A stretch of 64,000 bases of DNA from Octopus vulgaris (Eukaryota). Shown here in pieces: positions 5,986 to 56,582 of this stretch. The notes beneath the pieces were generated by a model. It ran no database searches, was not told the origin of the DNA, and was given only the letters and a program-made list of their open reading frames with translations. Made by a program: the position numbers and the translations under genes. Each line of letters starts with the position of its first letter. Within the stretch, counting starts at the first letter, position 1. The DNA is taken from NCBI GenBank assembly GCA_951406725.2, contig OX597834.1, forward strand, positions 30,318,001 through 30,382,000, read 5' to 3'.

Positions 5986-6256
5986 GTGGGCATGTGGCAT
6001 AGTGGTTAAGAGTGCGGACTACTAACCCCAAGATTCAGAGTTTGATTCCAGGCAGTGACCTGAATAATAATAATAATAACAACAACATCGAAGAATACCT
6101 TAGGAATGAGAACCCAGGTTGGAAATTTCCCCAAGACACCCGATGAAGGCTGGAGGGTATATCAACCGAAATATGTTAACAACAAACAAAACGAGGACAA
6201 ATATCCGTCAATTGTAAATAATGTACATAATTCCTCATCTCTAAAATATAGAACTG
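5986..6256 (+). mobile_element. tRNA-like head + (AAT)n + Penelope pLTR-like segment with a degenerate hammerhead motif
   Basis: A box TGGCATAGTGG 5995-6005, B-box-like GTTTGATTCC ~6040-6049, then acac CCGATGAA ggctg-10nt-caacc GAA atat at 6136-6177. Confidence 0.55.
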
Positions 6257-7214
6257 TAAAAGAGGAGAATTTGGAAAATATATATTACAGCAACAGGTAT
6301 AATTTGGTCAGAATCAACTGGAAGAATATAATAATGCATGAGAGCTTCATCTGTTAGGAATTTGTAAATAGTGGAATTTGTGATATAGTGTAGTGCAAGA
6401 TTGTTGAAGAAAAGAATGGTTAGAAAGAGGAATATGAGCCAAGTCATGTAAACATTCGTGAAGTCAAGAACAAAGGATGATAATGAAAATATAAACATTA
6501 TTATTTCTCTTCTCTTCTGTTGCAATGAGAAAAGGAAGAAAAAAATATCACAATTGCAGCAAGATATTGATAAAGTAATCTATAGAATTTTAAATATAGA
6601 CCCTATAATTAGTACTGCAATTTTAAATGAAACCTGTAATTATTATGCCATCAATTTTCCTATTTTAATTACGTTTGATATATTGAGGAAAACCAATGAA
6701 GAACTTTACAAAGCAAATCTAAGGCGGAGCTAATTAAAAACCGAAAAACAAAAACAAGAACAAAAAAAAAAGGATTCCACTGAGATGGAAACAAAACCTT
6801 CCAACACACAAAGGTTTTCTTCCTTTTTTTGTTTTTGTTTTTAAGATACAATTAACAATGGCTACCTATTGATGAAGACATTCAAATTAAATAGGAAATC
6901 AAACTGGATATCAAGATATGTTGTTGATACCATGTTCCTATTGAAATACACTACCCTTGTTTCAATTAATTTCAAAATAATGAAGCAGATAATGAAACAA
7001 CTTTGTCAATAACAATGTGGTATTTCAAACAACATAAATCAACAAAGAATTTCGATAGAAGGTTTTTTTAATTCAAGCCACTTTAAATAGGAAGTTTGTA
7101 GAATCGGGGTCAATCTAAGGCAAGTTGGTAACAAAAGAGTTAAAATAATCTTAACACATTCATTGAAGTACTAAGCATTAGAAAGAAACTTTATAAGAAC
7201 ATCACCATTTTTAA

Positions 7215-7431
7215 CCCTTTCGTTACCAACCCGGCTGAAACCGGTTCTGGCTCTGAGTACAAATGTTTTGTTTAAGTTTTGAATTAAAATTTTCCACCAA
7301 ACCTTTAGTCACAATTTATGTTCCTAACACTAGCTGAATGATAACTAAATTATTTTACTGAATTCTTTGTTATATTTAAAGTAATTGAAAGAAACACAAA
7401 GTATCTCAAAATAAATACAGTAACGAAAGGA
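7215..7431. mobile_element. piggyBac-type MITE (family 1)
   Basis: TTAA|CCCTTTCGTTAC...GTAACGAAAGGA|TTAA; closely similar copy at 18100-18319. Confidence 0.88.
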
Positions 7432-8399
7432 TTAATTTGTTAAGTTCAAAGAGTGAGATTTCTTTAACCTGTTTGATACCAATCAAGCAGAGATCTCTTT
7501 CAGTTTTATGTCACAAACTTTCTGGTTCAAAGTGATCTACATTAGCCCTTTAGATGCATGGATAAGGGTAATCGACTCATGGCTGTAAGGTCATGAGTCC
7601 AATTCCTGACAGCACCTTGTGCCCTTGAGCAAGACACTTCATTTCATATTGCTCCAGTTCACTCGGCTGGCAAAAATGAGTTGTATCTGTAATTCAAAGG
7701 ACTAGCCTTTTCACACTCTGTGTCACGCTGAATCTCCCTGAGAACTACATTAAGGGTATGCATGTCTGTGGAGTACTCAGCCAGTTGCATATGAATCAAT
7801 TAATTTAATACACAACAAGTAAAAGATAAAACATTCTTCTTGCATGCCTTAGATTAATGGGATTAGAATGTCTGCGATGCCAAAATGACAGATCATCGAC
7901 CATAGAATTAATGTAGGATCAAAGTCAAAGACCATACAAGATTCATGCCAGAGCAGCAGCACCAGCAATATTAGTAGTAGTAGTAGTAATAGAAGTAATG
8001 GTTTTAAATTTTGGCACACAGCTAGCAATTGTAAGGAAGGAGTTAAATTGATTACATCAACTCCAATACAGAACTGGTACTTATTCTATTGACCCTGAAG
8101 GGATGACAAGCAAAGTTGACCTCGGCGGAATTTGAACTCTGAACATAAAAACTGACAAAATGTTGCTAAGCATCTACTAACAATTTTTCAAGCTCACCAC
8201 CACCATAATAATTATAGGTGCAGGAGTGGTTGTGATAAGAAGCTTGCTTTCCAACCTCATAGTTCCAGGTTCAGTCTCACTACGTGGCACCTTGGGCAAG
8301 TGTCTTGTACTATAGCCTCAGGCCGACCAAAGCCTTGCAAGTGTATTTGGTAGACAGAAACTAAAAGAAGCCCATCCTGTATATATATATATATATATA

Positions 8400-8588
8400 C
8401 ACGACATGATAGATCGTTAGCCACTACACACATTTTTTTCTCTCCTTGTTTTTTGTGTCCCTTTCTCTAGAAGAGCGTAGGCTCGAAACGTAAAAGACTT
8501 TTTCTATTCCTGAGCGTTATACTAATACATCTGTTTGTTTGGTACACCACCTGTCTTCGTCTTTTGTTGTTTTTTCGTAAATTCTCCC
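8400..8588 (+). mobile_element. Hammerhead-motif (pLTR-like) element inserted in the (TA)n of a SINE-A
   Basis: 8461-8496: cttt CTCTAGAA GAGC-gtag-GCTC GAA ACGT A aaag (core deviant); (TA)n on both sides. Confidence 0.7.
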
Positions 8589-8646
<58 letters not shown>

Positions 8647-8854
8647 CACGTATTTGTGTGTCTGTGTTTGCCCCACAACCATTGCTTGACAACCAATGTT
8701 GGTGTGCTTATGTCCCCATAACCTTGTGGTTCGGCAAAAGAGATCAATAGAATAAGTCATGGGGTTGTTTTGTTTTACTAAATGTGGTGCTCCAGCATGG
8801 CTGCAGTCAAATGACTGAAACAAGTAAACGAATAAAAGAATAATAATAATAATG

Positions 8855-8892
<38 letters not shown>

Positions 8893-9724
8893 CCTGCTCC
8901 TGTCCCTCTCTCATACTTTCATATATCTCAATACAATACCCCAGTTAGTGGAGGGATCTTGTTTGCATGGTCTTGGTGGCATCACTTGTGTCAGTGTAGC
9001 CATGTAAAGGAAGCATCCAGTACACTGTCAAACGGTCGGCATTAGGAAGGACATCTGGCTATAGAAAAGCATGCTGAAGCAGGCTTTGGAGCTTGGCACA
9101 ACCCACCAACTCGTCAGTTCCTGTTGAACCATCCAACCCATGCCGGCATGAAAAAAAGGACATCAAATGGTGATGAAGAAAAAATCAATAACTGGAGGAG
9201 CTTACTATATCAACTGATACAGAGTGGTTTGTTAATGCAATGGAAGAGAGAAAGAGAGAGAGAGACAGACAGAGACAGAGAGGGTGTGTAATTTAGTGCA
9301 GTGAAAGTAATGCAATTTATTGCTGGACAATATGGTGGTGTATTTTATCAGATGGAAGAATTCCGATATAGCAGCAAGGACAGATGGGTTTTATTATGCT
9401 TCTTTATATATTTTATATTTTCCAGTGATGACAATTTAAGACAATGAGAAGAATCTGCCCACCACTCACCGAATGCTTGAATAACGGTAGCCAGCATTGG
9501 CAGTAACTGAGAATTTCTCAGTTACTTTTAAGGTTACAATTGCTGCTACTTGCTATTCCAAAATAACAGCAATTTCAGAAACGGTGAAACAAAGCATAAA
9601 ACAGATTTCACAACTACTAATACCTCAACTAGACATCAGCACAAACCCATATGTGTGTAAACATACATATTTATATGCATACATACACATACCTACATGC
9701 AAACAGACTTTACCTTCAGAAACC

Positions 9725-9952
9725 TATTTCTTTACTACCCACAAGGGGCTAAACACAGAGGGGACAAACAAGGACAGACAAACGGATTAAGTCGATAACA
9801 TCGACCCCAGTGCGTAACTGGTACTTGATTTATCGACCCCGAAAGGATGAAAGGCAAAGTCGACCTCGGTGGAATTCGAACTCACAACGTAACGCAGACG
9901 AAATACCGCTAAGCATTTCGCCCGGCGTGCTAACGTTTCTGCCAGCTCGCCG
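9725..9952 (-). mobile_element. SINE family B (head GGCGGCGAGCTGGCAG; core GTCGACTTTGCCTTTCATCCTTTCGGGGTCGATAAA)
   Basis: Flanked by a ccttcagaaacc target duplication (9713-9724 / 9953-9964). Other near-full copies at ~10902-11134(-), 21086-21314(-), 24288-24520(-), 29010-29481(+, two), 29870-30101(+), 30601-30833(-), 53096-53325(+), 59094-59316(-). Confidence 0.88.
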
Positions 9953-10418
9953 CCTTCAGAAACCAATAAACTTAATCCATTGCTCGTCAGGTGAACACAT
10001 TGCTGATTACACTACTGAGCACCTGAATTCCTCATTTTCAAATTAAGTAATTATTTTTCAGTTATTGTAACTGTAATGCAAGCTTCCTGTTTTAAAGCAA
10101 TCTAAAGCAAAAACGGTCCATTAAAAACTTTATGCTAAGTTATGTTCCAAACTACAGTTCAATTGCGCCAAAATTATTTTGATTAATTGAAAGGGAAAGC
10201 AGTGATGTGCATAAAGAGAAATGTACAGGCAGAAAAGGATTCAGTTAAAACTCCCTTCAATTCAGAAATAATCTTCACAAAAGACATTACTGAGTAAGTT
10301 CAATAAGTCAAACCAAACAGGATAAAAAGAGAGAGGAAGGGGGAGAGGGGAGGGAGAGAGAGAGAGAGCCATGCATCTGCTGTTGGAAATATCTAAATTT
10401 GCACATCATGTGCTAAAC

Positions 10419-10557
10419 CAGGCATGTGCAACCTTTTTCTAAGGAGCAGCTGGAATGAGACATGACTCATCATCAGGAAACGCACACAACTAAATAATTC
10501 ACGGTAATTTCTGGTTGCCATTCGGACAATCCCATGGGCATAGTTTGCTCATGGCTG
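10419..10557. mobile_element. hAT-type MITE
   Basis: Imperfect TIRs CAGGCATGTGCAACC / GTTTGCTCATGGCTG; 8-bp TSD tgctaaac / tgctaaat. Confidence 0.7.
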
Positions 10558-11710
10558 TGCTAAATGATCCAACATTTTTTAAAAATTAAAAGTGAAATGA
10601 AGATAAGAAATCCCAATAAAAATTCAATCAACGATGGTAATTAATTAAACAGAAAGATATCAACAAATAAGTTATTTAGAATTGGTTGGACTTAGGAGAC
10701 CTTTCTGCAGAGATTTCTGCATTTTAACTTCTCTTATCAGTCATATTGTGTGCCCTCTCCACTACAGTTTCTGCATTAAACTACTTCATCCAGTCTTTTC
10801 TCTCCCTCAAAATGTTGCTGGTCCCTTGAAATTAGCTCCTTGCTCAAGTTTTTCTCACAGGCAGGACATCAGTTTGCAACTACTCATGAGGTATAAACCT
10901 TCTTATTTCTTTATTGCCCACAAGAGGCTAAACATAGAGGGGACAAACAAGGACAGACAAAGGGATTATATCGATTAGATCGACCTCAGTGCATAACTGG
11001 TACTTAATTTATCGACTCCGAAAGGATGAAAGGCAAAGTCGACCTCGGCGGAATTTGAACTCAAAACGTAAAGACAGACGAAATACCGCTAAGCATTTCA
11101 CCTGACCTGCTAACGTTTCTGCCAGCTCACCACCTATGAGGTATAAACCTTGTCCATGTTCACCAGTCTTGAAGAACCTGAGAGGTCCATAGATGTAGCT
11201 GCGCCCCCCCCCCCAACTCAGCAATATATAAAAATAACAACACTGCAAAGTACAACACACAACCAGAGACTGGTTTCAGTTGTGGTGGGTTCTACCCTCC
11301 ACTCCATTACTGTATGACATGGGACATCTATGTCAGGATAGGCTAGGGTACAGAATATGAGCCAAATAACAGAAATAATATTAAGTAGAAAACAAGTATG
11401 GTATTCAAAGTTTTACGGAGTGTTACATGTATTTCATCAAAATTCTGTAATAATTACATACCAGTTGTAAAAAGAACACTGATGAAGTGAGGTGCAAAAT
11501 TGTATGTTTCTACAGTTATTTAATTATTTTTACAGCATTTTACTGAAATGCATGTATATTCTATAAAGCATGCCTTTGTGCGTGTGTGTATATGCACACG
11601 TGCATGCAACAAAACCTCTGTAAAGTAGAAAACCCTTAAACAAGTATTGCCCTTACTGGAACTGGAGTCTCTGTGAAGGACAATAAGGCAAAAATATAAG
11701 GTACAGTATA

Positions 11711-11924
11711 CAGGGTGGCTCAAAAGTAGGCTTACAGTTATTACATAGGCATTTGAAATTTCTTTTAAAACATTTCATTACATTATTTCTATCTTACAGA
11801 CTGAAAAGGGAGCTTGACAAAATTAACTAAGTTAGCATAGAATAAGGGTTTCATAATTTTTTTTTATAATTAAGTTAATATATGAATGCAAAAGAGATAG
11901 ATTTTTGCATTTTGGGCCACCCTG
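11711..11924. mobile_element. Tc1/mariner-type MITE
   Basis: TA|CAGGGTGGCTCAAAA...TTTTGGGCCACCCTG|TA. Confidence 0.8.
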
Positions 11925-12444
11925 TATGAATGTGTGCATGTGAGAGAGAGAGAGTGAGTGTGTGTGAAAAAGTGAATAAAAATGGTTTTCTGATGTTTAT
12001 AAATAATTAGGTGTTACAAATGGAGACTCTGCTGGGATGTTCTTGCTTAAAAGCAGTTCTCAAATCGATATTTTGCTATCCACTCTGAAGGTAGGACTGT
12101 TTAACTAGAAACACACACACAAACCACCATGAAACAAGAAACCAAGTTCAACCCTTCAAGAACTAAAATTTCAATTCAGGGTATGTGTGTGTGTGTGCAT
12201 GCACATGCATTCATGTGCAAGGGCATACAGTAGACAGAAATTCCATAAATGTAATAATGTATATATTTTATTACACTCCAGTACCTTTGAAAATTTGAAG
12301 ACTTTTTCTACCTGTATATAAATAAACTAAGAAGCAATTCTTCCCCTTTTTTTCTAACACCTTTATTATAACCAACAGTATCCTGCACACTACCAAAAGT
12401 GTTTTATCCCTATACATATAAGTACACACACACACACACACACA

Positions 12445-12495
<51 letters not shown>

Positions 12496-13276
12496 ATATA
12501 GACATATATATAAACATATATATATATATGCTACATATGTGTGAGTATATAACAACAATTAACCAACAAAATTCCTTTTTGAATGTACAACAAAGAACGA
12601 TAGGATAGTCATGCCTAGAGTACTTTTGATCATAGGTCTGTTCAATAAAGTTTGACCTTGGGCTAAACAACAGTGTGTGTGTGTGTGTGCATGCGTGCAT
12701 GTGCATATTGATCATTCAATCTAACACTTACTTGGTGTGCGGAAGAATTTCCATTGAAAACATTTCAAAATTTCACAAAAAAAACTCCAGTTAAGATTGA
12801 CTCCACGGCAGAAGTCATTCCCAGAATTGAAAATTTTAGGCAGGTTAAGAAAAAAAAACAAAAAAACAATGAAAGAAAAACTACCCAAAAGCTATTTGCT
12901 AAGAGGATCCTCCAGCAGAGACGGTAACATTAAATTCCGCTTATGAAATACGGTGTATGTTTAGAACATGTACTGTAGCATTTCTTTTGGTAAACTATTG
13001 AATGGTGTTGAAGGAGAGGAGAGGAGAGGAAAGGAAAGGAAAAAAAAAGTGATAAGTAAATAAAGATGAAAAAAAAAAAAACCCAAAAAAACATCCGATT
13101 ATCATCAAATGTAGGATAAGCTGCTGCCAAGGAAAAAAAAGTCGATATTGACAAAAATTTATTTTTAAAACAAATTTCAAAGAAGATATATTATTATGGG
13201 CCACTTTCTGATTCCCAAGAGCATACAAGTAGAAATACACATTCACACACATTATATTTATACACACAAACACATC

Positions 13277-13308
<32 letters not shown>

Positions 13309-13727
13309 ATGTGTATAAGTAGAGAGAGAGAGAGGGCATTAATATAATGAAATCAATTACTGATTGTCTTTTAAGATTTTTACTCCATCAATCAATTTAG
13401 ATAGTTTGGAGGAAGGAAGCTGTTTTGAAAGGAAGAAAGCAAAGGGAGAAAGAAAAAGGAAAAGAATCGGATATAAATAGTTGAAGGAATTGCAGAGAAA
13501 TGGGAATAAATGGTGAAGAAAAAGTAGAGGAAGAGAGTAAGAGATTATGATAAGAGAAGAATGAGAAAGATGGCAAGAGAGAGAGAGGGGGTAAGAAAAA
13601 ATGAGGGGGTAAGAAAAAATGAGGGGGAAAGGAAAGACAGGAAAAGAGAAAGTCTAGCAAGAGAGAAAATTCAGAGGGGAGAGAGAAAGGGAGACAAAGG
13701 GTAGATGTGGGAACAACATAAGATAGA

Positions 13728-14092
13728 TCATCATCATCATCTACATCATCACCAACTTCATCACCAACACCATCATCAAAATCACCACCACCACCATCAT
13801 CTACATCATCACCATCGTTACCACTACCAACTTCATCACCAACACCATCATTAAAATCACCACCACCACCACCACCACCATCATCATCATCTACATCATC
13901 ACCATCGTTACCACTATCAACTTCATCACCAACACCATCATCAAAATCACCACCACCACCACCACCATCACCATCATCACCACCACCACCATCATCATCA
14001 TCTACATCATCACCATCGTTACCACTACCAACTTCATCACCAACACCATCATCAAAAACACCACCACCACCACTACCATCATCATCATCATC
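13728..14092. repeat. (CAT)/(CAC) compound trinucleotide tract with higher-order repeats
   Basis: The block tctacatcatcaccatcgttaccactaccaacttcatcaccaacaccatc recurs several times; it sits at the (CAT)n tail of a SINE fragment. Confidence 0.9.
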
Positions 14093-15015
14093 ACTTAAGT
14101 CCACTTTCCATGCTAGTAGAAGTTGGATGGAGAGATGACAGAGCAAATACAAGAGAGAGAGAGAGAGAGAGAATAAACTAGAGGAAAAGAGAGAAGACTG
14201 GAGCAAAGAGAGAAAAAGAAGAGGAGAGAAACAAAAAAAGAAATGTTAAATAAGAATTCTACTGCAACAACTTTAAGAATATTATTCCGGTGTGTTACAT
14301 CATTAAAAGGAATAATCTATTAATGATTGCACTTAACCCAGGTAGAATTTATCAATAAACAGCTGCTCTAATTGCTAACATCTAGGGAATGAATGTCTGT
14401 ATGTCTAGCAACTTTCTGCTTAGTCTTCAGGAAAAAAGAAGAAGAAAAAAGTCTGTTAAAGAAGTTTTAGAAACTGTATTGATACAATACTCCAAAGATA
14501 CTTTTCTCTGCGTACATCAACAACTACAACAAGAAAATAGAAGTGTTGAAAAAAAAAAAAGAAAGAAAAAAATATTAATTAGGTATAGCTGTGTGGTTAG
14601 GATGCTCAATTTGTAACTATGTGGCTTTGGGTTCAGTCTCAATGCATGGCACCTTGAATAAGTGTCCTCTACCATGGCCTCGAACACAAGCTGAACAACG
14701 TGAGGGAAATTCGTGGACGGAAACTGTGTGGAAGCCTATTATATATCAGTATCAGTTTTGTTTGTGCTCTTGAGCACATCAGGTGGAAAGCTGATTCCAC
14801 TGGTTTCTGGTGGCTGCCGTTTTCTCTACATCCACCCTTGCAATATTGACCATTCTCATGTCATTTATGAATGCTCTGCATCATGGAGTCTTTCATCTCC
14901 GCATCCCTCTCTCTGGTAGAGTCCATTTGGAAGGTACTTTAGAATAGTGTTGTTCTGGTAACCAAAGTGTATGACCTGTTAGTTTCAATCTTCATTCTGT
15001 TACACACACACAATC

Positions 15016-15050
<35 letters not shown>

Positions 15051-15389
15051 CATGTAAATAAAAACATTCGAAGTGAGGTCATTGCCAGTGCCGCTGGACT
15101 GGCTCTTGTGCAGGTGGCACATAAAAAGCACCATCTGAGCGTGACCATTGCCAGTACCGCCTGACTGGCCCTCGTGCCGGTGTGCACGTAAAAGCACTCA
15201 CTACACTCTCAGAGTGGTTGGCATTAGGAAGGACATCCAGCTGTAGAAACTCTGCCAGATCAGATTGGAGTCTGGTGCAGCCATCTGGTTCGCCAGACCT
15301 CAGTCAAATCGTCCAACCAACCCATGCTAGCATGGAAAGCGGACAATAAACGATGATGATATAGATAAATACATACATATATACAGGTA

Positions 15390-15880
15390 TTGTGATGCAA
15401 ACAGGAAAAATAGAACTCAAAATATGAGTATATGTATATTTTCATAATTATTTTAGTTGAAGTAACAGATTGACTCAAGGTCTAAAAGTTTCATGCGTTG
15501 GAATTGGTTTTGATGTATGAGGATCTGACAACCTACACCTTCTTTGTCAATCATAATGTGACGTTCAAGTCACACCAATAATTTGCAAAGAAGCCCACAG
15601 ATGTTGCAAGAATGAGGACTGTAAAATTTAATATCATCTGGATAATAACCTTCTACCATGCTTCTCAAAGCACCTCCATGTATATCGGCTACCATATGCT
15701 ATCAAACAGCAGGAATTCTCCTTTTATTGGATATACAGGTGAGAATCCATTTATATTCGCAGAATTCATACAAAAAAATTATAATACAAGATGGAACGAA
15801 CAGGTTTTAATCCAAACCACAAAAATTGTTTTTGTGAACTAGCATCAGCTGTTAGTTGCAAAGTGTCTCACATACTGTAT
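15390..15880 (+). mobile_element. Decayed retroelement fragment, possibly Penelope-like
   Basis: Shares ~90 bp (gtgatgcaaacaggaaaatagaactcaaaa...gactcaa) with 55844-55935. Broken frames give C-x-C and FIGYTGE, weakly GIY-YIG-like. Confidence 0.3.
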
Positions 15881-16300
15881 ATAATCTATATATATATATT
15901 GTATAAATATGACGCAGCAATAGCAGTGCACCTGCATGTCATCAGGTGAGTGGGTCTGAGAACAACTCTAATGCAGAGAAAGAGTTGTTGTCCTTGCTTT
16001 GACATTGCATGATCGTTGAGAGTGAATGCCACTGTCAAACAAGCAGTGACATTCATTTTCAATATTCTTTGTAAACGTGCCTGGCCATTGAGAAATATTG
16101 CCTTGCTTGGAAACAGGTGAGGGTTAGTGACAGGAAGGACATCCAGACATAGAAAACCTGCCTCAACAAATTCCATCTGACCGACCCATGCAAGCATACA
16201 ATCTAAGTCATTGCTTCAACATGACCTTTGTTGGTAAAGTTCACCTCTGGAGATAACCCGTTCTCACATGAAGGTAGGGTGGGAAGGAGGAAGGAAGGAA

Positions 16301-16723: not shown

Positions 16724-17539
16724 CGACAGATGGATCAGTGTTCTGATCAAGAAAGAAAAGAAAAAGAAGAAAAGAAGGTGAGAAAGGAAGGAAGGAAGGC
16801 TGGAAGGCAAGAAGTAAGCCTATCCAGTAGTCGAATGGTTCGCCACATGTAAACAGGCACGTGTCAGTAAGTAGACAAAAAAGCGAGAAATCCCACTTGG
16901 CCCAAGGTGAACATTTTAAAGAAGAGAACGAAGGAGATATTTCGCTTCTTCTTTGTGTTCCTTCATATTATTTCGTGTCTCATGAAACAGAAGCAAAAAC
17001 ATCCCCACCCCACCGTCCTAAAAACACACTGCTTGGTTTTGATTTCACAAACAATTATCTTTACGTCTTTGTGATGCATTTTTTTTTTTAAAGTTAATGT
17101 AAAATGAGTTGTTTTTGAGCAAGAGAGAGAGAGAGAGAGAGAGAGTGATATCTTTTATATGAAGATGTTTGTTACCCCAGCCACACACACACACACACAC
17201 ACACCACCTCCTCCTGTCTTTAAAGGAAAACAGATCTCTTAGCAAAAATAGCATTGACTAATAAGAAAAATAAACAATAATAGAAGACATTACCATTATC
17301 GTCATGATGTAGTTGAGGAATTTGCTTCCTAACCACATAGTTACAGGTTCAGTCCTACCGCATGGCACCATCCATGGGCAAGGGTCTTCTACCATTGTAC
17401 CAGGATAACCAAAGTCTATTACATACATATATATATATGGAAGTCCGTTTATTATCTAAATCTGATTTTTATAGAAATATCCCTGATGTTTCAGGAGTGT
17501 AGCCTCACCCCCTTAGATGTTTGGAGAACTCAGATGTTT

Positions 17540-17629
17540 TTTCGGCTGATGAGTATGGGTCACTTGTATTTGCTGCAATATTTGCAGCCTTAATAAAGCT
17601 GGTCTTCGTATGAAACAATTGTACCGAAA
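17540..17629 (+). ncRNA. Type I hammerhead ribozyme with extended stem II, in a pLTR-like element (~17439-17663)
   Basis: Stem I tttcgg/ccgaaa; core CTGATGA; stem II GTATG...CGTAT enclosing the hairpin GCTGCAA-tat-TTGCAGC; GAA; palindromic stem III ACAATTGT; predicted cleavage after A17623 (GUA). Confidence 0.8.
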
Positions 17630-17659
17630 TATTGATCCGTTTTTGTTGCTTTTTTCTTG

Positions 17660-17702
<43 letters not shown>

Positions 17703-19022: not shown

Positions 19023-19061
<39 letters not shown>

Positions 19062-26160: not shown

Positions 26161-26417
26161 ATTATATTGCGTCTCATGTTTGATCTTTGACTTCTGGCCG
26201 AAATCAGATCGCCATGTTGATTCGCTAGCTTCTGCACGCATATTTTTTTTCTCTCCTTCTTTCTGTGTTTTTTCTCTGTGTATCTTTCTGTTGAAGAGCG
26301 TAGGCTCGAAACGTTAAAGACTTGTTTTATTTATATTTCCTGAGCGCCATACTAATACAATTGTTTGTTTGTATTCCACCTGCCTTCGTCTTTTGTCTAT
26401 TTTCATAAAGCTTCCCG

Positions 26418-26419
<2 letters not shown>
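26161..26419 (+). mobile_element. Hammerhead-motif (pLTR-like) element
   Basis: 26283-26320: tcttt CTGTTGAA GAGC-gtag-GCTC GAA ACGT T aaaga; ends in (TA)n; related to 8400-8588. Confidence 0.75.
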
Positions 26420-26468
<49 letters not shown>

Positions 26469-26487
26469 TAGTTTAAATCCTATATAT

Positions 26488-26587
26488 ATGAGGATCTGTA
26501 TATATCGAAACATTTGTAGCGATTAAAAAGCTGCCTAACTGTACTTACTCTTATTTTTGACTTATTTACTTTTTAAATAAACATATT

Positions 26588-26590
<3 letters not shown>
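26488..26590 (+). mobile_element. 5'-truncated hammerhead-bearing element
   Basis: ATGAG gat-ctgtatat-atc GAA ACA-tt-TGT A gcga; the core is cut at its 5' side by a TA run; followed by (TA)n. Confidence 0.5.
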
Positions 26591-26620
<30 letters not shown>

Positions 26621-26625
<5 letters not shown>

Positions 26626-26829
26626 ATCCAAACAAGAAAGCACAAAAAACACAACAACGCAAGGACATGGAACAAATATAGTATTATTGGACGCTCAGGA
26701 AAGAAGGAAAGAAGGAGAGTTTAATGTTTCAAGCGGAGCTCTTTGTTGGAAACATAGGAGAAGGAAAGATCCAGAGAAGGGAAGACAGAGGAAAAAACAA
26801 AATCGCCAAAGGTACATACGAGGTCACAC
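26621..26829 (-). mobile_element. Decayed copy of the 46328-46526 hammerhead element
   Basis: Minus strand gttt CCAACAAA gagc-tcc-gctt GAA acat t aaac (26753-26719). All four differences from the 46401 motif are CpG transitions. Confidence 0.8.
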
Positions 26830-31719: not shown

Positions 31720-31875
31720 TAAATTAGAGATAAAACCACTATTAGGCAAATCAAACAATGAAAAACTTAAGCCAATACATAAAATTAATCAATTTATATT
31801 ATTTTAAATATATATCAAAAGTATTAAAAGTTTAATAAAAGATAATGAGTATATATATATATATATATATATATA

Positions 31876-45619: not shown

Positions 45620-45710
45620 AATGCAGTTAGCGGTCCAGCTCTGTACGACGGATGGGTGGGGGAGTGGTGGTGGCGGCGGGGTTTGCTGACACAAACCGAC
45701 CAATCACAAG
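45620..45710 (-). promoter_or_regulatory. Candidate internal promoter (GC box and CCAAT box)
   Basis: GGCGGCGGGG 45672-45681 and GACCAATCAC 45698-45707 in a CpG-containing, non-repetitive patch just 5' of the candidate exon. Confidence 0.4.
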
Positions 45711-46205: not shown

Positions 46206-46290
<85 letters not shown>

Positions 46291-46327
46291 GATGATGATG
46301 ATGATGATGATATGTGTCACATTCAAA

Positions 46328-46521
46328 ATGTGACCTTGTGTGTACCGTTGGCGATTTTTTTCCCTCTGTCTTCCCTTCTCTGGATCTTTCCTTCTCCTAT
46401 GTTTCCGACGAAGAGCTCCGCTCGAAACGTTAAACCCTCCTTCTTTCCTGAGCGTCCAATAATACTATATTTGTTCCACGTCCTCGTGTTGTTGTGTTTT
46501 TTTGTGCTTTCATGTTTGGAT

Positions 46522-46526
<5 letters not shown>
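46328..46526 (+). mobile_element. Hammerhead-motif (pLTR-like) element
   Basis: 46401-46435: gttt CCGACGAA GAGC-tcc-GCTC GAA ACGT T aaac; 3' end abuts (TA)n. Confidence 0.78.
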
Positions 46527-46552
<26 letters not shown>

Positions 46553-49305
46553 TTTCCATGTTGGACAGGGCGCTGATTTATTGCCAAAATACTTGTTTCT
46601 ACTGAGTGGATAGAGGCATCATGAAAAGAGAGGTTTGGCTCAAGAACACAACACATTGCCTGGCCCAGGAATCGAAACCACAATCTTACAATGATGAATC
46701 CAACACCCTAACCACAGAGCCATGCACCTCCACAGCTGGCATGGAGATATAAATGAACACACACACACACAAATAGAGTCAGGCAAATAAATTACCTCCA
46801 GAACTTCCTTTTTCTGTCTTTTCTTTTTTAGTCAGGTACTTATTCTAACAATCTCTTTAGCTGAACTGCTAAGTTACAGGGGTGTAAACAAACACTGGTT
46901 GTTGACTGGTGGTGGTGGTGGTGGTGGTGGGTGTGACAAACACAGATATGTGTGTGTGTATGTACAAACATACACACATATGCAGAGACAGAGTGAGAGA
47001 GAGAAAGAGAGTTATACACACAGAGACAAACAGACAGACAGAGAGACAACAGGCTTCCATAGAGTTTCCTTCCGCCAAATTCACTTACAAAGCATCGGTT
47101 GGCCCAGGGCTGTAGCGGAGGACACTTGCCCAAGGTATCATACATTAGGACTGAACCCAGAACCATGTAGTTGGCAAGAAAACTTCTTAAGCACACAGCC
47201 ACGCCTCCCTTTGAAACTGTTAGGCCATGTCCAGCATAACTAAATAGGGAAAATGATTGACTTGTAGAAGTAGGGGTTCTACTCCTACTTCTAGTTTGTT
47301 GGTAGTAGAATAAACTGCATAGGGATTTTTAAAGATTTTGAAATCCCTAACTAACATGGTCCCCTGCCCCCATCGTTTACAGATGTAAACTCATGTAATA
47401 ACAGATAACAGCTGTTCTCCAAATATAGACATGAATCATACACCCACCCCACAAACTCCATGTGTAGATACGAAAGGAATCAAGAAGTCCTTATATTAGT
47501 TAATTGTAAGACTTTTCTTCGTGCCAGCATCTTAAACTGATGATATCACATTCGTTCTCCTTAACATTTACACACACACACAAGTGCGTAAAAGAAAAAT
47601 CTGTTCTAGGATTTGACATTTTATTAAATGAGGTCATTTCTTCTTGTAGTCCTGATGGCATTCACGTACATACAAACACAAACACACACAACACAGGCAT
47701 ATGTGCTCCAGCATGGCCTCAAACATGATAGCTAATGAAAAATGAAAGAACACATAAACATACAGAGAACATGTACACATATATTTATTTCTTTACTACC
47801 CACAAGGGGCTAAACACAGTGGGGAGAAACAAGGACAGACAAAGGGATTAAGTCTATTATATCGACCCCAGTGCGTAACTGGTACTTAATTTATCGACCC
47901 CGAGAGGATGAAAGGCAAAGTCGACACATATATTGCAAACGCTATGCATACACACTCACACACACGCGCATACACAAAACAGATGCATGTTATACACATG
48001 CTCCAGTATGGGCCTAGCCATGATGGCTGAAGGGAATTAAAGAACACACAACTCACAAAGCGCTTACACATGTATACTTATACTACAAATGCTTTACACT
48101 AACACATGTGAATGTTCCACACATGCTCCATTATGGGCTCAGCTATTATCACTAACAGAAACTTTAAAAAGAAACTGAAACATACGCAAGTATACAAGCA
48201 GCACATTTTAGTCAGGTACTTATTCTAACAATCTCTTTAGCTGAACTGCTAAGTTACAGGGGTGTAAACAAACACGGGTTGTCGACTTCACCCATAAATA
48301 CATCCTCCACACTTGCTCCAGCATGAGCTTAACCATAATGGCTACAAGGAACTGAATGTCATACAAGATATAAGCATGCAAACGCTTTGTTGCATGTGTG
48401 TCTCTTTGATTATCCACCTTCACCCACCACCACATGACAACCATTGTTGGTTTGTTTATGTCCACATAACTTAGTGGTTCAGCAAAATGGACTGATAGAA
48501 TAAGTACCAGACTTACAAAAAAAAGAATATATATATATATAGATATGTAAATGTGTATCAGGGTTGATTTGATCAGCTAAAACTCTTTGAGGAAGGAGGT
48601 GCCCCTGCATGGCCACAGTCAAATGACTGAAACAAGTAAAAGACACACACACATACACACGCATACACTGAAATTGTGTCACACAAACACACATCCATTC
48701 TAACAATCATATTCCAAATGCTGCTGCTTATACAAAATGAGGAAAGACAAAATTCTGAACACAGGGTTATTGTCTTACAAATAACAACACACAAGAGATT
48801 TAATACAACAATTAATTTTACCCCTTTCTTTTTTTTTCTGAAATGTGGAGCTTATATGGTTATAAAAATAACTTCAGCTTAGAAAACAAATAAAAGCTTG
48901 TATTCAGACAAAAATAAAACCTACATATATGAATGCTGTTGCTCTTGGCCTTAACCTTTTTGATAGCAACCCACCTGAGACTGTCACTGGTTCTATAACA
49001 CAATCTTCATATTTTAAAGTGATCTAAATTTAAACCTTCCATTTAAGCTTTCATACAAATTTATGTCCCAAACGCCTGCCTAATGAATGACAAAAGTTAT
49101 TTTACTGAACTCTTTGTTATTTCCAGAAAAAAATTGAAACTAGGCACAGGAGTGGCTGTGTGGTAAGTAGCTTGCTTACCAACCACATGGTTCCGGGTTC
49201 AGACCCACTGCGTGACACCTTGGGCAAGTGTCTTCTACTATAGCCTCGGGCCGACCAAAGCCTTGTGAGTGGATTTGGTAGACGGAAACTGAAAGAAGCC
49301 TGTCA

Positions 49306-49347
<42 letters not shown>

Positions 49348-49902
49348 TGTTTGTGTGTCTGTGTTTGTCCCCCTAGCATTGCTTGACAACCGATGCTGGT
49401 GTGTTTATGTCCCCGTCACTTAGCAGTTCGGCAAAAGAGACCGATAGAATAAGTACTGGGCTTACAAAGAATAAGTCCCGGGGTCGAGTTGCTTGACTGG
49501 GCGGTGCTCCAGCATGGCCGCAGTCAAATGACTGAAAAGAGTAAAGAGTAAGGCAGATGGTAACAGAAGGGTTAAAATCATCTAAATTAAAACATTCCAT
49601 CAAAATTTTGGGTTAATTTATGGTCCAGAAACCAGCTTAATTAACAACAAAATTGTTTCACTAAATTCATCATTATTTTCAAAATGAAATGGAAAAAAGG
49701 CAGTCCGTTTCAACAGAGAGATGGTGACAAAAGGTTAGCACACAGTTCCAGGTTCAGTCCCACTGTGTGGAACCTTGGGCAACTGTCTTCAACTAAAGTG
49801 TCATGATGACCAAAGCCTTGAGAGTGGATATGACAGACGGAAACTGAAAGAAGCCTATTGTGTGTGTGTGTGTGTGTGTGTATACATATATCATCATCAT
49901 TA

Positions 49903-50193
49903 TTTCGTTTTTGGATTTGGTTTGCAAGATTCTTTATATGAGTTTGTGTGCTGAAGCATATTCTGTTGTGTCTGGGGAGAGTCGTTTTCTTTTTGTGCCT
50001 TATAATATAACACACTCACCGGTAAAATTTCCACTTCTTTCTTATTTTTATTTTCCTAAAATTTTTGTTGCGTCTTGCAACCTTTTCAATAGTATTGACT
50101 CATAAAAATAAGAAAAAAGTGGAAACTTTACCAGCGAGTGTGTTATATTATAAGGCACAAAAAGAAAATGACTCTCCCCAGACACAACAGAAT
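49903..50193 (-). mobile_element. pLTR-like element with inverted segment and U3-A8 hammerhead variant
   Basis: Arms 49960-50050 / 50103-50193. The spacer on minus reads cta TTGAAAA G GTTGC-aagac-GCAAC aAA AATT T tag. Flanked by (ATC)n. Confidence 0.65.
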
Positions 50194-50209
50194 CATCATT
50201 ATTGTTTAA

Positions 50210-50430
50210 CCCTTTAGTGTTCGCATTATTCTACCAAAATTAATGCTTCTTTATCCTCATTGTTTTGAACTAATCACACATTATCTTGTAGCTATGAGAT
50301 TTTGATGAAGTAGCTGTTAATTTTTAAAATGACATTGTAGGGTTGGTCTGAGAGACCAGATCTGGCAAGTTTGGACATAAAACAGGCAGAATACTTTTGG
50401 CCGGATATGGCTGGTTTAAATGCTAAAGGG
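50210..50430. mobile_element. piggyBac-type MITE (family 2)
   Basis: TTAA|CCCTTTAG...CTAAAGGG|TTAA; reverse-oriented copies at 54004-54224 and 54321-54531. Confidence 0.88.
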
Positions 50431-51263
50431 TTAACATCCTCCTTGCATGCTGGCATGGGTTGGACAGTTTGACAGGAGCTGGCCAGGTAGGGGTCTGCAC
50501 CAGACTTCTGTGCCTGTTTTGGCAGGGTTTTTACAGTTGGATTCCCTTCTGAACCCCAACCACCACTTGACTACCAGTTGGTGTGTTTTTGTCCTTTTAA
50601 CTCAGCAGTTTGGCAAGACACTGACTGAATATGTGCTAGGCTTACACAAGAAAAAGTGCTGGGGTCAATTTGTTAACTAAAATTCTTCAAGGTCGCAGTG
50701 GTAGGATGTACATTTGACATTGGCTTTAAAACTCGCTTACATTACTTACACACAGACACACACACACGTCTCTTCACTTTGACCTTGCACCAAAGCTTTT
50801 GCTGAAAATTCTTAGCAAGACGCAAATACGTTTATATTATTGACATTTAGCATTTTGAGCAAACACTCAAGAATCTTTTCCCCGCCCACGATTTTCATAC
50901 GATTAGCACATGACATAGTTGTATCAAGCACAAAAAAAAAGAAAAAAAAAAAAAAAAAAAAGAAAAAAAACTTAATAAAAATATTTTTAAATAAATGAAA
51001 CTAAAAATAGAAATTAGCCATGTTGATAAAATAAACATCAAAGAAGTAAATAAAGGAGGGTGAGAGGGGGGTGCAATAAGAGCTGTCGTGGTTGTGTGAT
51101 CAAAGAAATGTACTTTTGTAACTCCATGGTGCCAAGTTTGGTCTCACAATTCTGTAATCTCTAGAGACCGGTTTCATGGAAGCTGCAGATCAAAACTGCA
51201 ACTTTGTCATCTATTGCCATTATCTTACCAAGATACTTGTCTCAAATGTATAATGATAATATT

Positions 51264-52020
51264 GGTTTCAAATTTTGGCACAAGGCCAGTAATTTCGGGG
51301 GGAGAGGATAAGTCGATTAAATTGACCCCCAGGGCTCAACTGGTACTTATTTTATCGGGCCCCAAAAAGTTGAAAGGTAAAATTGATCTTGGTAGAATTT
51401 GAACTCAGAGTGTTAAAGACAGGCAAAATGCCCATCTTTACATCTTGCCTGGAGTGCTAATGATTCTGTCAACTCTCACTGCTGTAAAGTACAGGTTTCA
51501 AAATTTTGCACAAGGTCAGCAATTTCGGGGGGAGAGGATAAGTCGATTAAATTGACCCCCAGGGCTCAACTGGTACTTATTTTATCGGGCCCAAAAGGAT
51601 GTAAGGTAAAATTGATCTTGGTAGAATTTGAACTCAGAGTGTAAGGACTGGCAAAATGCCCATCTTTACATCTTACCTGGAGTGGTAATGATTCTGCCAG
51701 CTCTCACTGCTGTAAAGTACAGGTTTCAAAATTTTGCACAAGGTCAGCAATTTCGGGGGGGGGGGGAGAGGATAAGTCGGTTAAATTGACCCTCAGGGTT
51801 CAACTAGTACTTATTTTATCGGGCCCCAAAAAGTTGAAAGGTAAAATTGATCTTGGTAGAATTTGAACTCAGAGTGTTAAAGACAGGCAAAATGCCCATC
51901 TTTACATCTTACCTGGAGTGCTAATGATTCTGCCAGCTCTCACTGCTGTAAAGTACAGGTTTCAAAATTTTGACACAAGGGCAGCAGTTTCGATTACATC
52001 AACCACTCAACCGGTACTTA
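51264..52020 (-). repeat. Tandem array of ~230-bp SINE-B-related units
   Basis: ggtttcaaa(a)tttt.gcacaagg recurs at ~51264, 51493, 51722 and 51958. Confidence 0.9.
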
Positions 52021-52284
52021 TTTTTATCGACCCCGAAAGGATGAAAGGCAAAGTTGACCCCGGTGGTATTTGAACTTAGAATGTAGAGACAAATGGAATG
52101 CCACTAAGCATTTTGTCTAGTGTGCTAAGGATTCTGCCAGTTTGCTGCCTTTGATTTAATTGATGATGATGATGATCTGAGTAAAACGAAACAGTAAAAA
52201 CATTGAAACAACAGAACATACTGCATCTAATGACAGATAGAAAATGACTATTATCATATGGCAATGGTATGTAACAGTTGTGTG

Positions 52285-52287
<3 letters not shown>

Positions 52288-52351
<64 letters not shown>

Positions 52352-52623
52352 GTGAGAGAGAGAGAGAGAGTGAGAGAGAGAGAAAGAGAGAGATAGAGAC
52401 AGAGAGAGAGAGAGAGAGAGAGTGTGAGAGAGAGAGAAAGAGAGAGATAGAGACAGAGAGAGAGAAAGAGAGAGAGATAGAGACAGAGAGAGAGAGAGAG
52501 AAAGAGAGAGTGAGAGAGAGTGAGAAAGAGAGAGATAGAGACACAGAGAGAGAGAGTGTGAGAGAGAAAGATATATATAGAGAGAGAGATAGAGAGAGAA
52601 AGAGAGAGAGACAGAGAGAGAGA
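52288..52623. repeat. (GA)n-rich microsatellite
   Basis: Visible tract. Confidence 0.97.
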
Positions 52624-53900
52624 TAATATCACAGCACTTGGTTGATAATCATTCTAATTCCTTTACTGAAATAGGGTTAGACTAATCAGCTTAAGCACGC
52701 TGCTGCTGCTGTTGCTGCTGCTGGTGCACAGGCTCACTCATGCTTTTGTCATCTGCATTCAAATCCACCACCGAGTCAGTTGCCTACAGTCGTTTTATAT
52801 GTTGTTTAATTCCCAGATCAACATTGATCGTGCAAGTCCCAGGATCAGAGGCATTCCACTGTAAACATCCTGTGGCTGTGTGGGTAAGGGGCTCACTTTG
52901 CAACCGTGTTTAGGGGTCAGTCCCATTGTGCGTAAATGTCAAGACATGGAGATGCATACTCACTGATACACACATTCACGTGTGTGTGTGTGTGAGAGAG
53001 AAACAGACAGACAGAGAAAGACAGGCTTCTTTCAGTTTCCATCCACCAAGCTCCCTCACAAGGCTTTGGTTTCCCAGGGTCAATAGTAGAAGACAACGAG
53101 CTGGCAGAGTCGTTAGTACGCCAGGTGAAATGCTTAGCGGTATTTCGTCTGCAGCTACGTTCTGAGTTCAAATTCCGCCGAGGTCGACTTTGCTTTTCAT
53201 CCTTTCGGGTTCGATTAAATAAGTACCAGTTACACACTGAGGTCGATATAATCGACTTAATTCCGTTTGTCTGTCCTTGTTTGTCCCCTCTGTGTTTAGC
53301 CCCTTGTGGGTAGTAAAGAAATAGGTATTTACCCAAAGTGCCACACAGTAGAATTGAACCTGGAAACAAAAGTGGGAAACAAGGTGGCGTGCGGGGGGGG
53401 GGGGGGTGTTTAGATGAATGCAAAGTAAATGGACACAAAGCAAAAAAACAAATAGAAAAGGAGATAAAAATGCCTTCTTGAGAAACACTGACAATTCTTC
53501 CACAGTTCTACTGCCAAGAGCTTGACAATGAGCCTATTTAAACAAAGTTTTATTGACTTCCTGCCTGATTAATTCAAGATCATGTACACAGAGAGAGAGG
53601 GGGGAGAGAGAAAGAAACAGACAGACAGAAGAAATGAGGGGGGTGAGATAAACAGCAGAGAGAGAGAGAGAAAGGGAGAGAAAGAGAGAGAGAGAGAGAG
53701 AAAGAGCAAAATGTGTGAAGATGACCTAATTAATTAACAAAACAACTAGCTATCACCATCATCATCATATTTTTTTTTTCACCAAGCTGACAGGAACTGG
53801 ATGAATCTCACAGCATCTCACTATTTGTCACAGTGTTCATGCCATCTGGAATACTCAACCACAGAGAAAACTTGTCAGCCTTTGTTGCGTGTGCAATGAT

Positions 53901-54535
53901 TTAATGCCCTTCCTAGCACCAACCACCAACTCCTTCACATCATAGAACAGGGGCATTTTACCATACCACCAGCACTAGAGAGGCTGACTATAACAAGATT
54001 TAACCCTTCAGCATTTAAACCGGCCATATCCGGTCAAAAGTATTCTGCCTGTTTTATGGTCAAACTGGCCAGATCTGGTCTCTCACAACAACCCTACAAT
54101 ATGGTTTTAAAAATTAACAGCTACCTCATCAAAATCTCATAGCTACAAGATAATGTGTGATTAGTTCAAAACAATGTGGATAAAAAAGCATTAATTTTGG
54201 TAGAATAATGTGAACACTAAAGGGTTAATGCCCTTCCTAGCACCAACCACTTCACACCATAGAACAGGTGCATTTTACCATACCACCAGCACTAGAGAGG
54301 CTGACTATAACAAGATTTAACCCTTTAGCATTTAAACTGGCCAAAAGTATTCTGCCTGTTTTATGGTCAAACTGGCCAGATCTGGTCTCTCACACCAACC
54401 CTACAATGTCATTTCAAAAATTAACAGCTACCTCATCAAAATCTCATAGCTACAAGATAATGTGTGATTAGTTCAAAACAATGTGGATAAAAAAGCATTA
54501 ATTTTGGCAGAATAATGCGAACACTAAAGGGTTAA
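53901..54535 (+). repeat. Tandem duplication of flank plus piggyBac MITE
   Basis: ttaatgcccttcctagcaccaaccac at 53901 and 54225; each unit ends in a MITE. Confidence 0.9.
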
Positions 54536-55249
54536 GAGTCAAACGTTACTTTGCATCAGATTCAGTTTCCGTTGCAGAGTTACCATTATTCTGAACAGGT
54601 TGCCAATACCGCACTCTGATCAGCAACATTTCCTGATCATTCAAGCAGCCCATTAAATTTTTCAAAATGCCAAGAACTTAATATGCAAAATAATCAGATA
54701 AGCTTGGCAATAATTTTGAAATACTATGTGTGTGTGTGTGACTGTGTCTTTGTATTGTATTTGTCTCTTACCCACCTCTGGACAACTGGAAGTTTATGTC
54801 CCCATGACTTAGTGGTTTGCCAAAAGAAACTGTTAGAATGAGTATGAAACTTATGAAAAAGGAAAGCATTGGAGTCAATTTGTTTGACGAAAACCTTTCA
54901 GGCCAGTGCCCCAGCATGGGCACAGTCGAATGACTGAAACAAGTAAAAGATAAAAGAAAAAAAAATAATGTAAATATTATGTTTAATACTTCAATAGGGG
55001 AAACATTCTTTTGTAAAGTGATTCGTTAAAAAGAATAATAAAATACGACAAACCAAAATAGACATATTAGATCTCATTCAACAAAGAATGTTTATTTCCT
55101 TGGCATTATTCATTGGGGGGTGGGGCAGAAAAATACAAAAGAAAAACTTCAAAAAAATCCTTGAAATAAATTGCATAGGAAAAAAAAATTATACTCCTAA
55201 AAAAACTCAAAAGCCAACACAACCAACAAGCTAAAATTTAAATTTAAAT

Positions 55250-55379
55250 ATATATATACATACATACACACACACACATATATATACACACATACATATA
55301 CATATATACACACACATACATACATACACACACATACATATACATACATACATACACACACACACATATATACATACAA

Positions 55380-55422
<43 letters not shown>

Positions 55423-55467
55423 CACACATAAATACATACATACACACACACACACATATATACATAC
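55250..55467. repeat. Compound TA/CA/TACA microsatellite
   Basis: Visible tract. Confidence 0.95.
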
Positions 55468-55509
55468 AAGTTTCAGGTGTTATAGTCAAGCTATATATAG
55501 ATGTCTCTC

Positions 55510-56009
55510 CACAGGAGAACTAAACTTAGAAAAACTTACTAAGACAATAAAATGTAAAAATAAAACGTAAAGTTACTAAATATAGCCCATCTCTGCAAGC
55601 ATTTAGGATTTCCAAATATTTCTGGATCATTATTTGAGATGAAAGATATGTGCAAGTTTGTTTCCAGACAGGAAGTGAATTATCTAGGTCTGTTGCTAAC
55701 GTAACTGATACTACAATTAAAAAGCGATGATGACAGGTGGATAGCATGGCACTTGTACCACAGCCTTTCTGGAGAGTCTATATAACTGCAGAGGGCATTT
55801 AAAATAGATAACAGTGTGCGTTGCATATGGGCGTGTGGGTTTGGTGATGCAAACAGGAAAATAGAACTCAAAAACATGAATATATATTATTAATCAGCAG
55901 ATGTTACCGAGTGACTCAAAGGCCAAGAATCTTGTGCATCGGCACTTAGTAACTGGAATTTATCAAGTGCCAATGCACAAAACTCTTGGCCTTTGAGTCA
56001 CTCTGTAAC
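55510..56009 (+). mobile_element. Decayed retroelement fragment (possibly Penelope linker region) ending in a fold-back
   Basis: Frame VTKYSPSL...SKYFWIII*D resembles the Penelope RT-EN linker; inverted repeat 55903-55947 / 55965-56009. Confidence 0.35.
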
Positions 56010-56118
56010 TCAAGCCAATTCTGCTCCCACAGCATCAACCAGGACTCAGTGCTCTGAGAAGTAAAACAATAATAATAATAATAACAATAATATATATCCT
56101 CATCTTCATTTAACATCC

Positions 56119-56149
<31 letters not shown>

Positions 56150-56380
56150 CTTTATTTAAAGCAGCAGAAAATTCAACAAAATCTGTTACTCTGAGTTTCT
56201 CGTTGCCGTTCATCAGACAGTTTTTGCTAGCAAAAACTGTCTGATGAACGGCAACGAGAAACTCAGAGTAACAGATTTTGTTGAATTTTCTGCTGCTTTA
56301 AATAAAGCATATTACTCTACCACTGGTATTTGAGTACTCTTTTTACCACCTTGTTTTACATTTATGTGTTTACTCCGGTA
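56150..56380 (+). mobile_element. pLTR-like element with a perfect 158-bp palindrome and hammerheads on both strands
   Basis: Arms 56150-56228 / 56229-56307. Hammerhead at 56237-56274: ctgt CTGATGA ACG-gcaa-CGA GAA ACT-cag-AGT A acag; mirror at 56220-56183. Confidence 0.88.
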
Positions 56381-56544
56381 TATATATATATATATTGAAC
56401 TCATTTATTTGTTTTGTTTAATTTTTGTTTATCGCTCGCATATGACCGTTATTTGAAAGGACCAATCAAGCAAGTCCATTTTTAAAGGTATAACGGTTAT
56501 ACTAGTCTTGATAGAATTGTCATATCGGTTCAATTTTAACAAAA

Positions 56545-56582
56545 CTGTCTGACGAACGGGAACGTGAAACTGCGAGTAACAG
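56545..56582 (+). ncRNA. Canonical type I hammerhead ribozyme, in element ~56396-56689
   Basis: ctgt CTGACGA ACG-ggaa-CGT GAA ACT-gcg-AGT A acag. All core bases present; stem I extends (aacaaaa/ttttgtt) past a 1-nt bulge; predicted cleavage after A56578. Confidence 0.88.

Follow-up and report, generated by a model that had tools for sequence, protein, structure and literature searches.

Hammerhead-bearing ends of Penelope-like elements in Octopus vulgaris, including a family with a tRNA-like head

Introduction

Many animals harbour large and varied sets of mostly solo minimal hammerhead ribozymes that come from Penelope-like elements (PLEs) (PMC4209133). Here we analyze a stretch of 64,000 nucleotides of the Octopus vulgaris genome (OX597834.1, 30318001-30382000, in an assembly of 2.8 Gb and 227 contigs; henceforth the window, always meaning the whole stretch) in which a first-pass annotation, made from the letters alone, had noted 11 hammerhead motifs. 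We conclude that these are very probably stubs of PLE pseudo-long terminal repeats (pLTRs), i.e. the 5'-truncated ends of seven repeat families (A to G), six of them PLE-linked, which carry decaying minimal type I hammerheads and were likely inserted by their own reverse transcriptase (RT)-endonuclease. One family, E, opens its pLTR with a tRNA-like head.

What is said here of published work refers to the accessible portions of each text. Craig et al. 2021 (PMC8557442) assigned the CxCX5C linker to the Hydra clade of PLEs. In the Anolis element PAc, RT starts internally at two sites, which makes a tail, and the ribozyme cleaves only with protein, its cleavage being dispensable for insertion in vitro (Frangieh et al. 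2024, PMC11167929). The 2026 repeat annotation of Octopus vulgaris gives 31 recently active Penelope-like families, the word ribozyme being absent from its accessible text (PMC13282606), and its repeat library may already contain the families treated here. A giant squid paper gives 235 Rfam hammerheads. Our literature searches, with repeat databases and supplements outside their scope, found no tRNA-headed pLTR and no octopus PLE hammerheads. Publications already cover the PLE-hammerhead class, including how it targets (TA)n, its inverted arms and its tails, and the window is a dense local sample of this known class.

Results

Continuation of the repeats into PLE reading frames

A first look at the genome gave 2328 candidates for family A, 425 for B, 1972 for C, 1970 for D, 4540 for E, 348 for F and 2997 for G; per family, the best 40 were scored and 20-30 loci fetched. 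As the first-pass reading of Penelope pLTRs had anticipated, six of the seven families continue 5' into PLE frames: upstream of the repeat in A, B, C, D, E and G lies one open reading frame (ORF) that combines RT with a C-terminal GIY-YIG domain. Three C loci share at least 1.49 kb of upstream sequence including the GIY-YIG end, the coding sequence ending about 1 kb upstream, and the C ORF has the CxCX5C linker. Four D loci match a 781-aa PLE frame (E-values 1e-37 to 1e-26) with a Neptune-type linker, and the same linker type occurs in the frame of A (L486). The frame was reached at two loci each in B (L128, L148) and G (L430, L436). In family E the RT domain was detected with an E-value of 1.8e-8, and 20 of 30 ORF-selected loci align from the ORF through the head. 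The units, taken at first for a short non-coding retroelement or retrozyme family, read instead as truncated ends, with variable 5' limits, of coding elements of at least 2.6 kb belonging to several clades.

Clade labels (Poseidon, Neptune, Hydra type) are read from linker motifs and not from a tree with reference elements. On this basis, A and D match the Neptune clade in their CX2-5CxxC linker combined with (TA)n targeting and C-terminal GIY-YIG, C matches the Hydra clade in its CxCX5C linker with (TA)n, and E matches Penelope/Poseidon in linker absence (PMC8557442).

The assembly as a whole holds 6136 GIY-YIG candidates, many with 781-aa open frames carrying RT and GIY-YIG domains. Many of these candidates, together with L211:1664-4009 and L212, belong to a Neptune-type PLE family that is young and retains intact 781-aa frames; at L211 a 333-aa frame lies upstream and overlaps the 781-aa frame. 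Other hammerhead types were seen near GIY-YIG matches outside the window (L094, L098, L099, L102, L104, L112, L228), and the genome therefore has more than seven such families. Two A ends at L471/L472 (C14:63100793-63101965), 1.1 kb apart and 99% identical, form a young tandem.

The insertions of the window, and the host exon beside them, are as follows.

5988..6062, plus strand: family E, pLTR head of tRNA-like sequence, A-box-like at 5995-6005 and B-box-like at 6038-6049
6063..6084, plus strand: family E, internal (AAT)n of variable length
6085..6258, plus strand: family E, ORF start to tail, with ATG at 6106 and the decayed minimal hammerhead core at 6140-6146
6225-6231, plus strand: family E, approximate inner 3' end, with the tail up to 6258
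8405..8588, plus strand: D subfamily stub, hammerhead at 8461-8496, its core damaged; (TA)n on the 3' side
17438..17660, plus strand: C stub, intact canonical hammerhead 17540-17629 with an 8-nt palindromic stem III; Hydra-type linker in the family ORF
26169..26418, plus strand: D stub, hammerhead 26283-26320 with family-fixed A6U core; Neptune-type ORF
26472..26575, plus strand: F stub, a hammerhead with long stem II reduced to its 3' half; the CUGA core is missing
26621..26828, minus strand: A stub, decayed hammerhead 26753-26719
46323..46526, plus strand: A stub, hammerhead 46401-46435, core U4C as fixed in the family; one locus has a Neptune-type ORF
49901..50105, minus strand: G main arm with tail, U3-A8 variant 50094-50056, G12 mutated
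50102..50193, plus strand: G inverted arm, tail-less
56144..56224, minus strand: B inverted arm (56183)
56233..56378, plus strand: B main arm (56237), weakened stem II
56396..56686, plus strand: second B insertion, canonical hammerhead 56545-56582
5256..5408, minus strand: HR1 exon of the host PKN-type gene (Pfam HR1, E-value 8e-12)

State and number of the hammerheads

All 11 motif positions fall on hammerhead-family sequence in dispersed repeats but make up only ten insertions, 56183 and 56237 being the two arms of one B insertion. Self-comparison grouped 26719 with 46401 (A), 56183 with 56237 and 56545 (B), and 8461, a subfamily, with 26283 (D), while 17540 (C), 6136 (E), 26488 (F) and 50056 (G) stand for one family each. 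The seven families have a common topology and wholly different stems. Judged against genomic copies, intact canonical ribozymes are present only at 17540 and 56545. The motif at 46401 has a U4C core that recurs in 27/29 copies of A, and the A6U core at 26283 is found in all 29 copies of D. The B pair 56183/56237 retains the canonical core with a stem II of only two pairs, those at 6136, 8461 and 26719 are decayed, and 50056 is a U3-A8 variant (19/19 in G) with G12 mutated. The ribozyme of F has a 14-pair stem II, of which 26488 keeps the 3' half; its earlier parse as a full hammerhead was wrong because the CUGA core is missing.

The family-type fold is intact in 26/29 copies of A, 26/29 of C, 28/29 of D and 15/19 of G, in 12/29 of E and 9/24 of F, and in 24/58 of B, a count that penalises canonical cores differing from the commonest B core. 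That commonest core is U4C, and the canonical-looking B cores may arise by CpG decay. Palindromic stem III, pointed out from the start, is present in five of the seven families, and an extra nucleotide after A9 with G10.1-C11.1 in four. Published PLE hammerheads resemble those of the window in the type I minimal fold, the additional nucleotide that separates 9 from 10.1, the G10.1-C11.1 pair, palindromic stem III, the U3-A8 variant and the many families per genome; unlike ours, they are described, in the accessible text, with no mention of octopus, of family-fixed U4C (A) or A6U (D) cores or of a tRNA-like head (PMC4209133).

To estimate density, we counted insertions in the flanks of loci fetched for other families (0.95-1.31 Mb each), a sample biased towards TA-rich places: 19 of A, 6 of B, 1 of C, 24 of D, 9 of E, 1 of F and 10 of G. 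They sum to 57 insertions per Mb, about one per 17 kb in place of the one per 6 kb first proposed, and to a similarly biased genome-wide total of about 160,000 stubs.

Insertion anatomy and a possible mechanism

Beyond the 3' end comes a TA-type microsatellite in 28/29 copies of A, 29/29 of B, 28/29 of D and 18/29 of C, but only 2/29 of E, and by eye G has none; the flanking microsatellite of the first-pass annotation therefore stands for A, B, D and most of C. Its (ATC)n flank does not, as (ATC)n occurs on the 5' side only. The 3' ends do lie about 37-158 nt past the predicted cut, as had been noticed. An upstream inverted arm accompanies 21/29 copies of B, 10/29 of C and 16/29 of E. Tails were seen in 9/29 copies of C and, on exactly one side, in 18/19 of G, and a pLTR both upstream and downstream of the ORF (partial tandem) for E only. 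Overall, B, C, E and G often show inverted arms and one-sided tails, whereas A and D show neither. In the literature, (TA)n targeting and such arms and tails mark endonuclease-containing PLEs, whose clades likewise show an inverted 5'-truncated copy and a 30-40-bp tail (PMC8557442).

By analogy with PAc, with its two internal RT starts giving the tail and, as here, no RNA-seq ends at the cut (PMC11167929), we infer that the Anolis-type mechanism holds in the octopus families. The protein would nick (TA)n (A-D, Neptune- and Hydra-type) or AT-rich DNA (E, G). Reverse transcription would begin within the RNA, at two closely spaced positions some 40-160 nt beyond the ribozyme, producing a one-sided tail plus an inverted arm, and would mostly halt early, giving 5' truncation. 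The ribozyme cut would then not be what sets the 3' end of the element. The palindromic stem III would permit cleavage as a dimer, or else cleavage may be protein-assisted.

Retrozymes, chance folds and points against pLTR stubs

It is most improbable that the motifs are chance folds in AT-rich repeats. An Rfam scan of the window returned no hammerhead at E<=5, and a descriptor allowing two core mismatches found six matches where 20 block-wise dinucleotide shuffles of the window gave a mean of 1.9 and a maximum of five; one of the six, at 6580, is absent from the first-pass list and may itself be chance. Tighter descriptors nevertheless exceeded every shuffle, with two strict matches (17546, 56549; shuffle mean 0.2) and four with one mismatch (mean 0.6, maximum 3), and a coincidence would have to place the same topology at the same point of the PLE ends in seven unrelated families. 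Non-autonomous retrozymes, which replicate through RNAs, circular or multimeric, that the hammerhead cuts, would account for most copies being short and non-coding and for the 1.1-kb tandem pair of family A, and a preprint derives animal retrozymes from pLTRs (10.64898/2026.07.22.740005), their type I hammerhead units being related to pLTRs as ours are. Those retrozymes, however, are tandem monomers, whereas the window units are solo truncated PLE ends and not head-to-tail monomers; the 5' ends form a continuum that in six families extends into PLE ORFs, and ends do not match the cut. Since the units occur singly, are truncated to varying extents and connect to ORFs, this reading fails and is already largely refuted; we regard it as very unlikely.

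Several observations weigh against pLTR stubs with hammerheads. F showed no ORF link in 25 loci, and the ORF link of A is a single locus; no inverted arm was found in 29 copies of A or in 29 of D. Stem I of G has three pairs, and the A and D cores are non-canonical, so that these two may fail to cleave. For A, C, D, E and F, the most frequent type folded as a single strand has its core paired with stem III instead, and in two-strand folds only family C formed the intermolecular stem III. RNA reads, from fragmented RNA-seq, had no end pile-up at the family E cut site. Finally, copies within families decay neutrally with almost no compensatory double changes, and the argument for the fold therefore rests on the comparison between families.

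Family E: a Poseidon-type PLE with a tRNA-like head

The segment 5988-6062, overlooked in the first-pass annotation, aligns end to end with the octopus' own tRNA genes. The best of 30 sampled tRNA loci (only six amino-acid types) was Arg-TCG, with scores of 57-61 for five heads compared to 34±3 (maximum 49) for the best of 30 with shuffled sequence, while Rfam gave no tRNA match on four E loci. In 30 E copies, a set selected on the mutated variant of the window, the A box was retained in 27 and the B box in 14. Body sequence follows the head in all 29 other head-selected loci, and no free-standing head occurs in 30 loci.

Some E copies run 5' into a Poseidon-type GIY-YIG end without the linker finger. 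The ORF stops about 30 nt before the head, which lies upstream of the next ORF start, and the ribozyme is situated inside that start. By eye, part of the head is retained in 27/30 ORF-selected loci (three being one duplicated locus). The three head-less copies do not cluster on the star-like tree (28 rows, 2 duplicated loci left out), so a head-less subfamily was rejected. Among 29 loci selected on the N-terminus, six have a ribozyme-bearing pLTR directly upstream of the ORF (L396, L379, L381, L385, L391, L393); at L396 the head is followed by an ATG 34 nt before the core, opening a 200-codon frame through the ribozyme. E is dead: none of 150 scored matches retains an intact ORF, the longest frame still open being 569 aa, and end branches measure about 0.037. 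We considered E as a separate PLE-mobilised short interspersed element (SINE) and dropped this: it does have a head with A and B boxes, but the head sits in the pLTR of the coding element itself, and copies continue 5' into the ORF.

Like E, PAc has a hammerhead overlapping the ORF start and AT-rich targets, but no reported tRNA-like head, and its ATG is at stem II and not 34 nt before the core (PMC11167929). The SINE-like SM-alpha of Schistosoma shares with E a Pol III-type promoter followed by a hammerhead, in non-coding tandem repeats, whereas in E the pair forms the terminal repeat of a coding element (PMC6765202). No tRNA-like pLTR is described in the accessible text on PLE clades (PMC8557442), and that of the retrozyme preprint makes no mention of tRNA, promoter or octopus (10.64898/2026.07.22.740005).

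A tRNA-like sequence, presumably captured, opens the E pLTR at the point of the 5'-end pile-up and is a likely mark of the transcription start. E can be likened to the Cassandra terminal-repeat retrotransposon in miniature, which has a Pol III gene in its terminal repeat, although Cassandra is a non-autonomous plant element with long terminal repeats, carries 5S and not tRNA, and has no ribozyme.

Promoter or passenger

Use of RNA polymerase III (Pol III) is the reading that we favour for the head, although a working Pol III promoter seems to us plausible but somewhat short of probable. The larger proposal, that E was transcribed whole by Pol III from the tRNA-like A and B boxes of its upstream pLTR into an uncapped 2.9-kb RT-endonuclease RNA, its solo pLTRs spreading like SINEs, we hold to be unlikely; it is likewise doubtful that the terminal repeat of E gained a tRNA-type internal promoter at its leading edge while 2.6 kb were cleared of all Pol III terminators. 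Nearly an even chance goes to the head being a passenger, a tRNA piece with an (AAT)n tail in the 3' untranslated region of a master copy, with a Pol II promoter doing the work and the lack of T runs due to chance. The head with its (AAT)n does resemble a simple retroposed tRNA, has no Rfam tRNA score and was lost independently by three copies. Yet it is a fixed part of the element, with no free-standing head among 30 loci, and copy 5' ends pile up at it: in 52 head-bearing segments, selected neither on the head nor on the 3' end of the ORF, 30 breakpoints fell within -20 to +10 of the head in 755 nt (0.040 per nt), compared with 10 in 1415 nt (0.007) from +10 to +40, 5 in 327 (0.015) from -60 to -20 and 4 in 1579 (0.0025) from -390 to -60. 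Against a promoter, a short palindrome at the head edge is a possible fold-back hot spot, and the arms of one insertion are not independent breakpoints.

Pol III terminates at runs of at least four T. Over about 2.6 kb (138 and 71 aligned pieces) no such run is common to half of the E copies, whereas seven other PLE families together have 24 shared sites in 7722 bp (1 in 1002 to 5 in 390 bp; an eighth family, with one copy, was not included). With the protein held constant, synonymous-codon nulls predict 4.0 runs on the codon usage of E itself, or 4.6 on that of the other families, with probabilities of none of 0.006 and 0.008; a trinucleotide shuffle is uninformative because it preserves TTT content. 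Five of ten long copies lack a T run in 1.5-2.1 kb, the other five having 1-3; the last 167 nt of E have none versus 2-5 in the seven other family ends; and eight distant metagenome relatives have 3-10 per kb of contig, the contigs being too short to span a pLTR. On the other side, one family has just the 1 shared run in 1002 bp mentioned, Phe codons in E (2.5%) are fewer than in other families, and four natural null stretches hold 2 private runs against 4.0±1.6, which is not significant unless only shared runs are counted. The ribozyme cut would take off the ATG, and the Drosophila element studied has an internal promoter of the TATA-less type found in long interspersed elements (PMC2377424).

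Raw reads of three RNA runs, from one study whose species label may not be that of the window, showed no start or end pile-up. Coverage was several thousand-fold over the pLTR body and about 5-15 over the ORF N-terminus, equal on both strands; the reads are unstranded and 87% extend into unrelated flank. They reflect embedded copies and decide nothing on the promoter.

Genomic setting and other repeats

The assembly has three HR1 matches, all on the minus strand of the window's contig: besides the exon listed above, one lies 3 kb past the right end of the window and another just left of it. With HR1 exons on either side, the motifs lie within a PKN-type gene transcribed from the minus strand; PKN is presumably the right name given the three HR1 repeats of that protein. 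The insertions sit between two HR1 exons, in an intron of this gene, although small exons may lie between. Eight of the ten main arms are antisense to the gene, a number too small for a test.

Within 26169-26828, three PLE stubs (D, F, A) are linked via (TA)n in 660 bp, a local insertion hot spot. On the minus strand, 31720-31850 is the 3' stub of another (TA)n-flanked repeat, broken downstream of the ribozyme; its copy at L214 retains the half with GAA and palindromic stem III. At 2842-3800 are three tandem 319-bp copies, 96% alike, made of SINE pieces. The 5'-truncated start of a very young non-coding element occupies 63682-64000 (plus strand) and continues beyond the window: its 40 scored matches are all 100% identical, lie in (TA)n and often form 844-864-bp tandems. 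In it GAAA precedes CUGA, the strand after GAA and its apparent upstream partner co-vary between young and old copies, and 3/25 copies plus that of the window begin a few bases from the predicted cut of a rewired hammerhead.

Discussion

Most of what is seen here extends a known class to a further, likely octopus, genome and supplies natural core variants that are worth assaying. Of more importance is the tRNA-headed family, a structural variant that we did not find in print. Its Pol III reading is bold and unproven, pointed to indirectly by the pile-up of 5' ends and the absence of shared T runs. To our knowledge no natural Pol III-transcribed protein-coding retroelement is known, and none was found in our literature searches. 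If it were true, the uncapped E RNA would require cap-independent translation. The layout of E suggests how PLE terminal repeats could turn directly into SINE-like hammerhead repeats of the Pol III kind, and a Pol III-transcribed E would represent the coding parent of elements that join a promoter to a hammerhead, SM-alpha among them.

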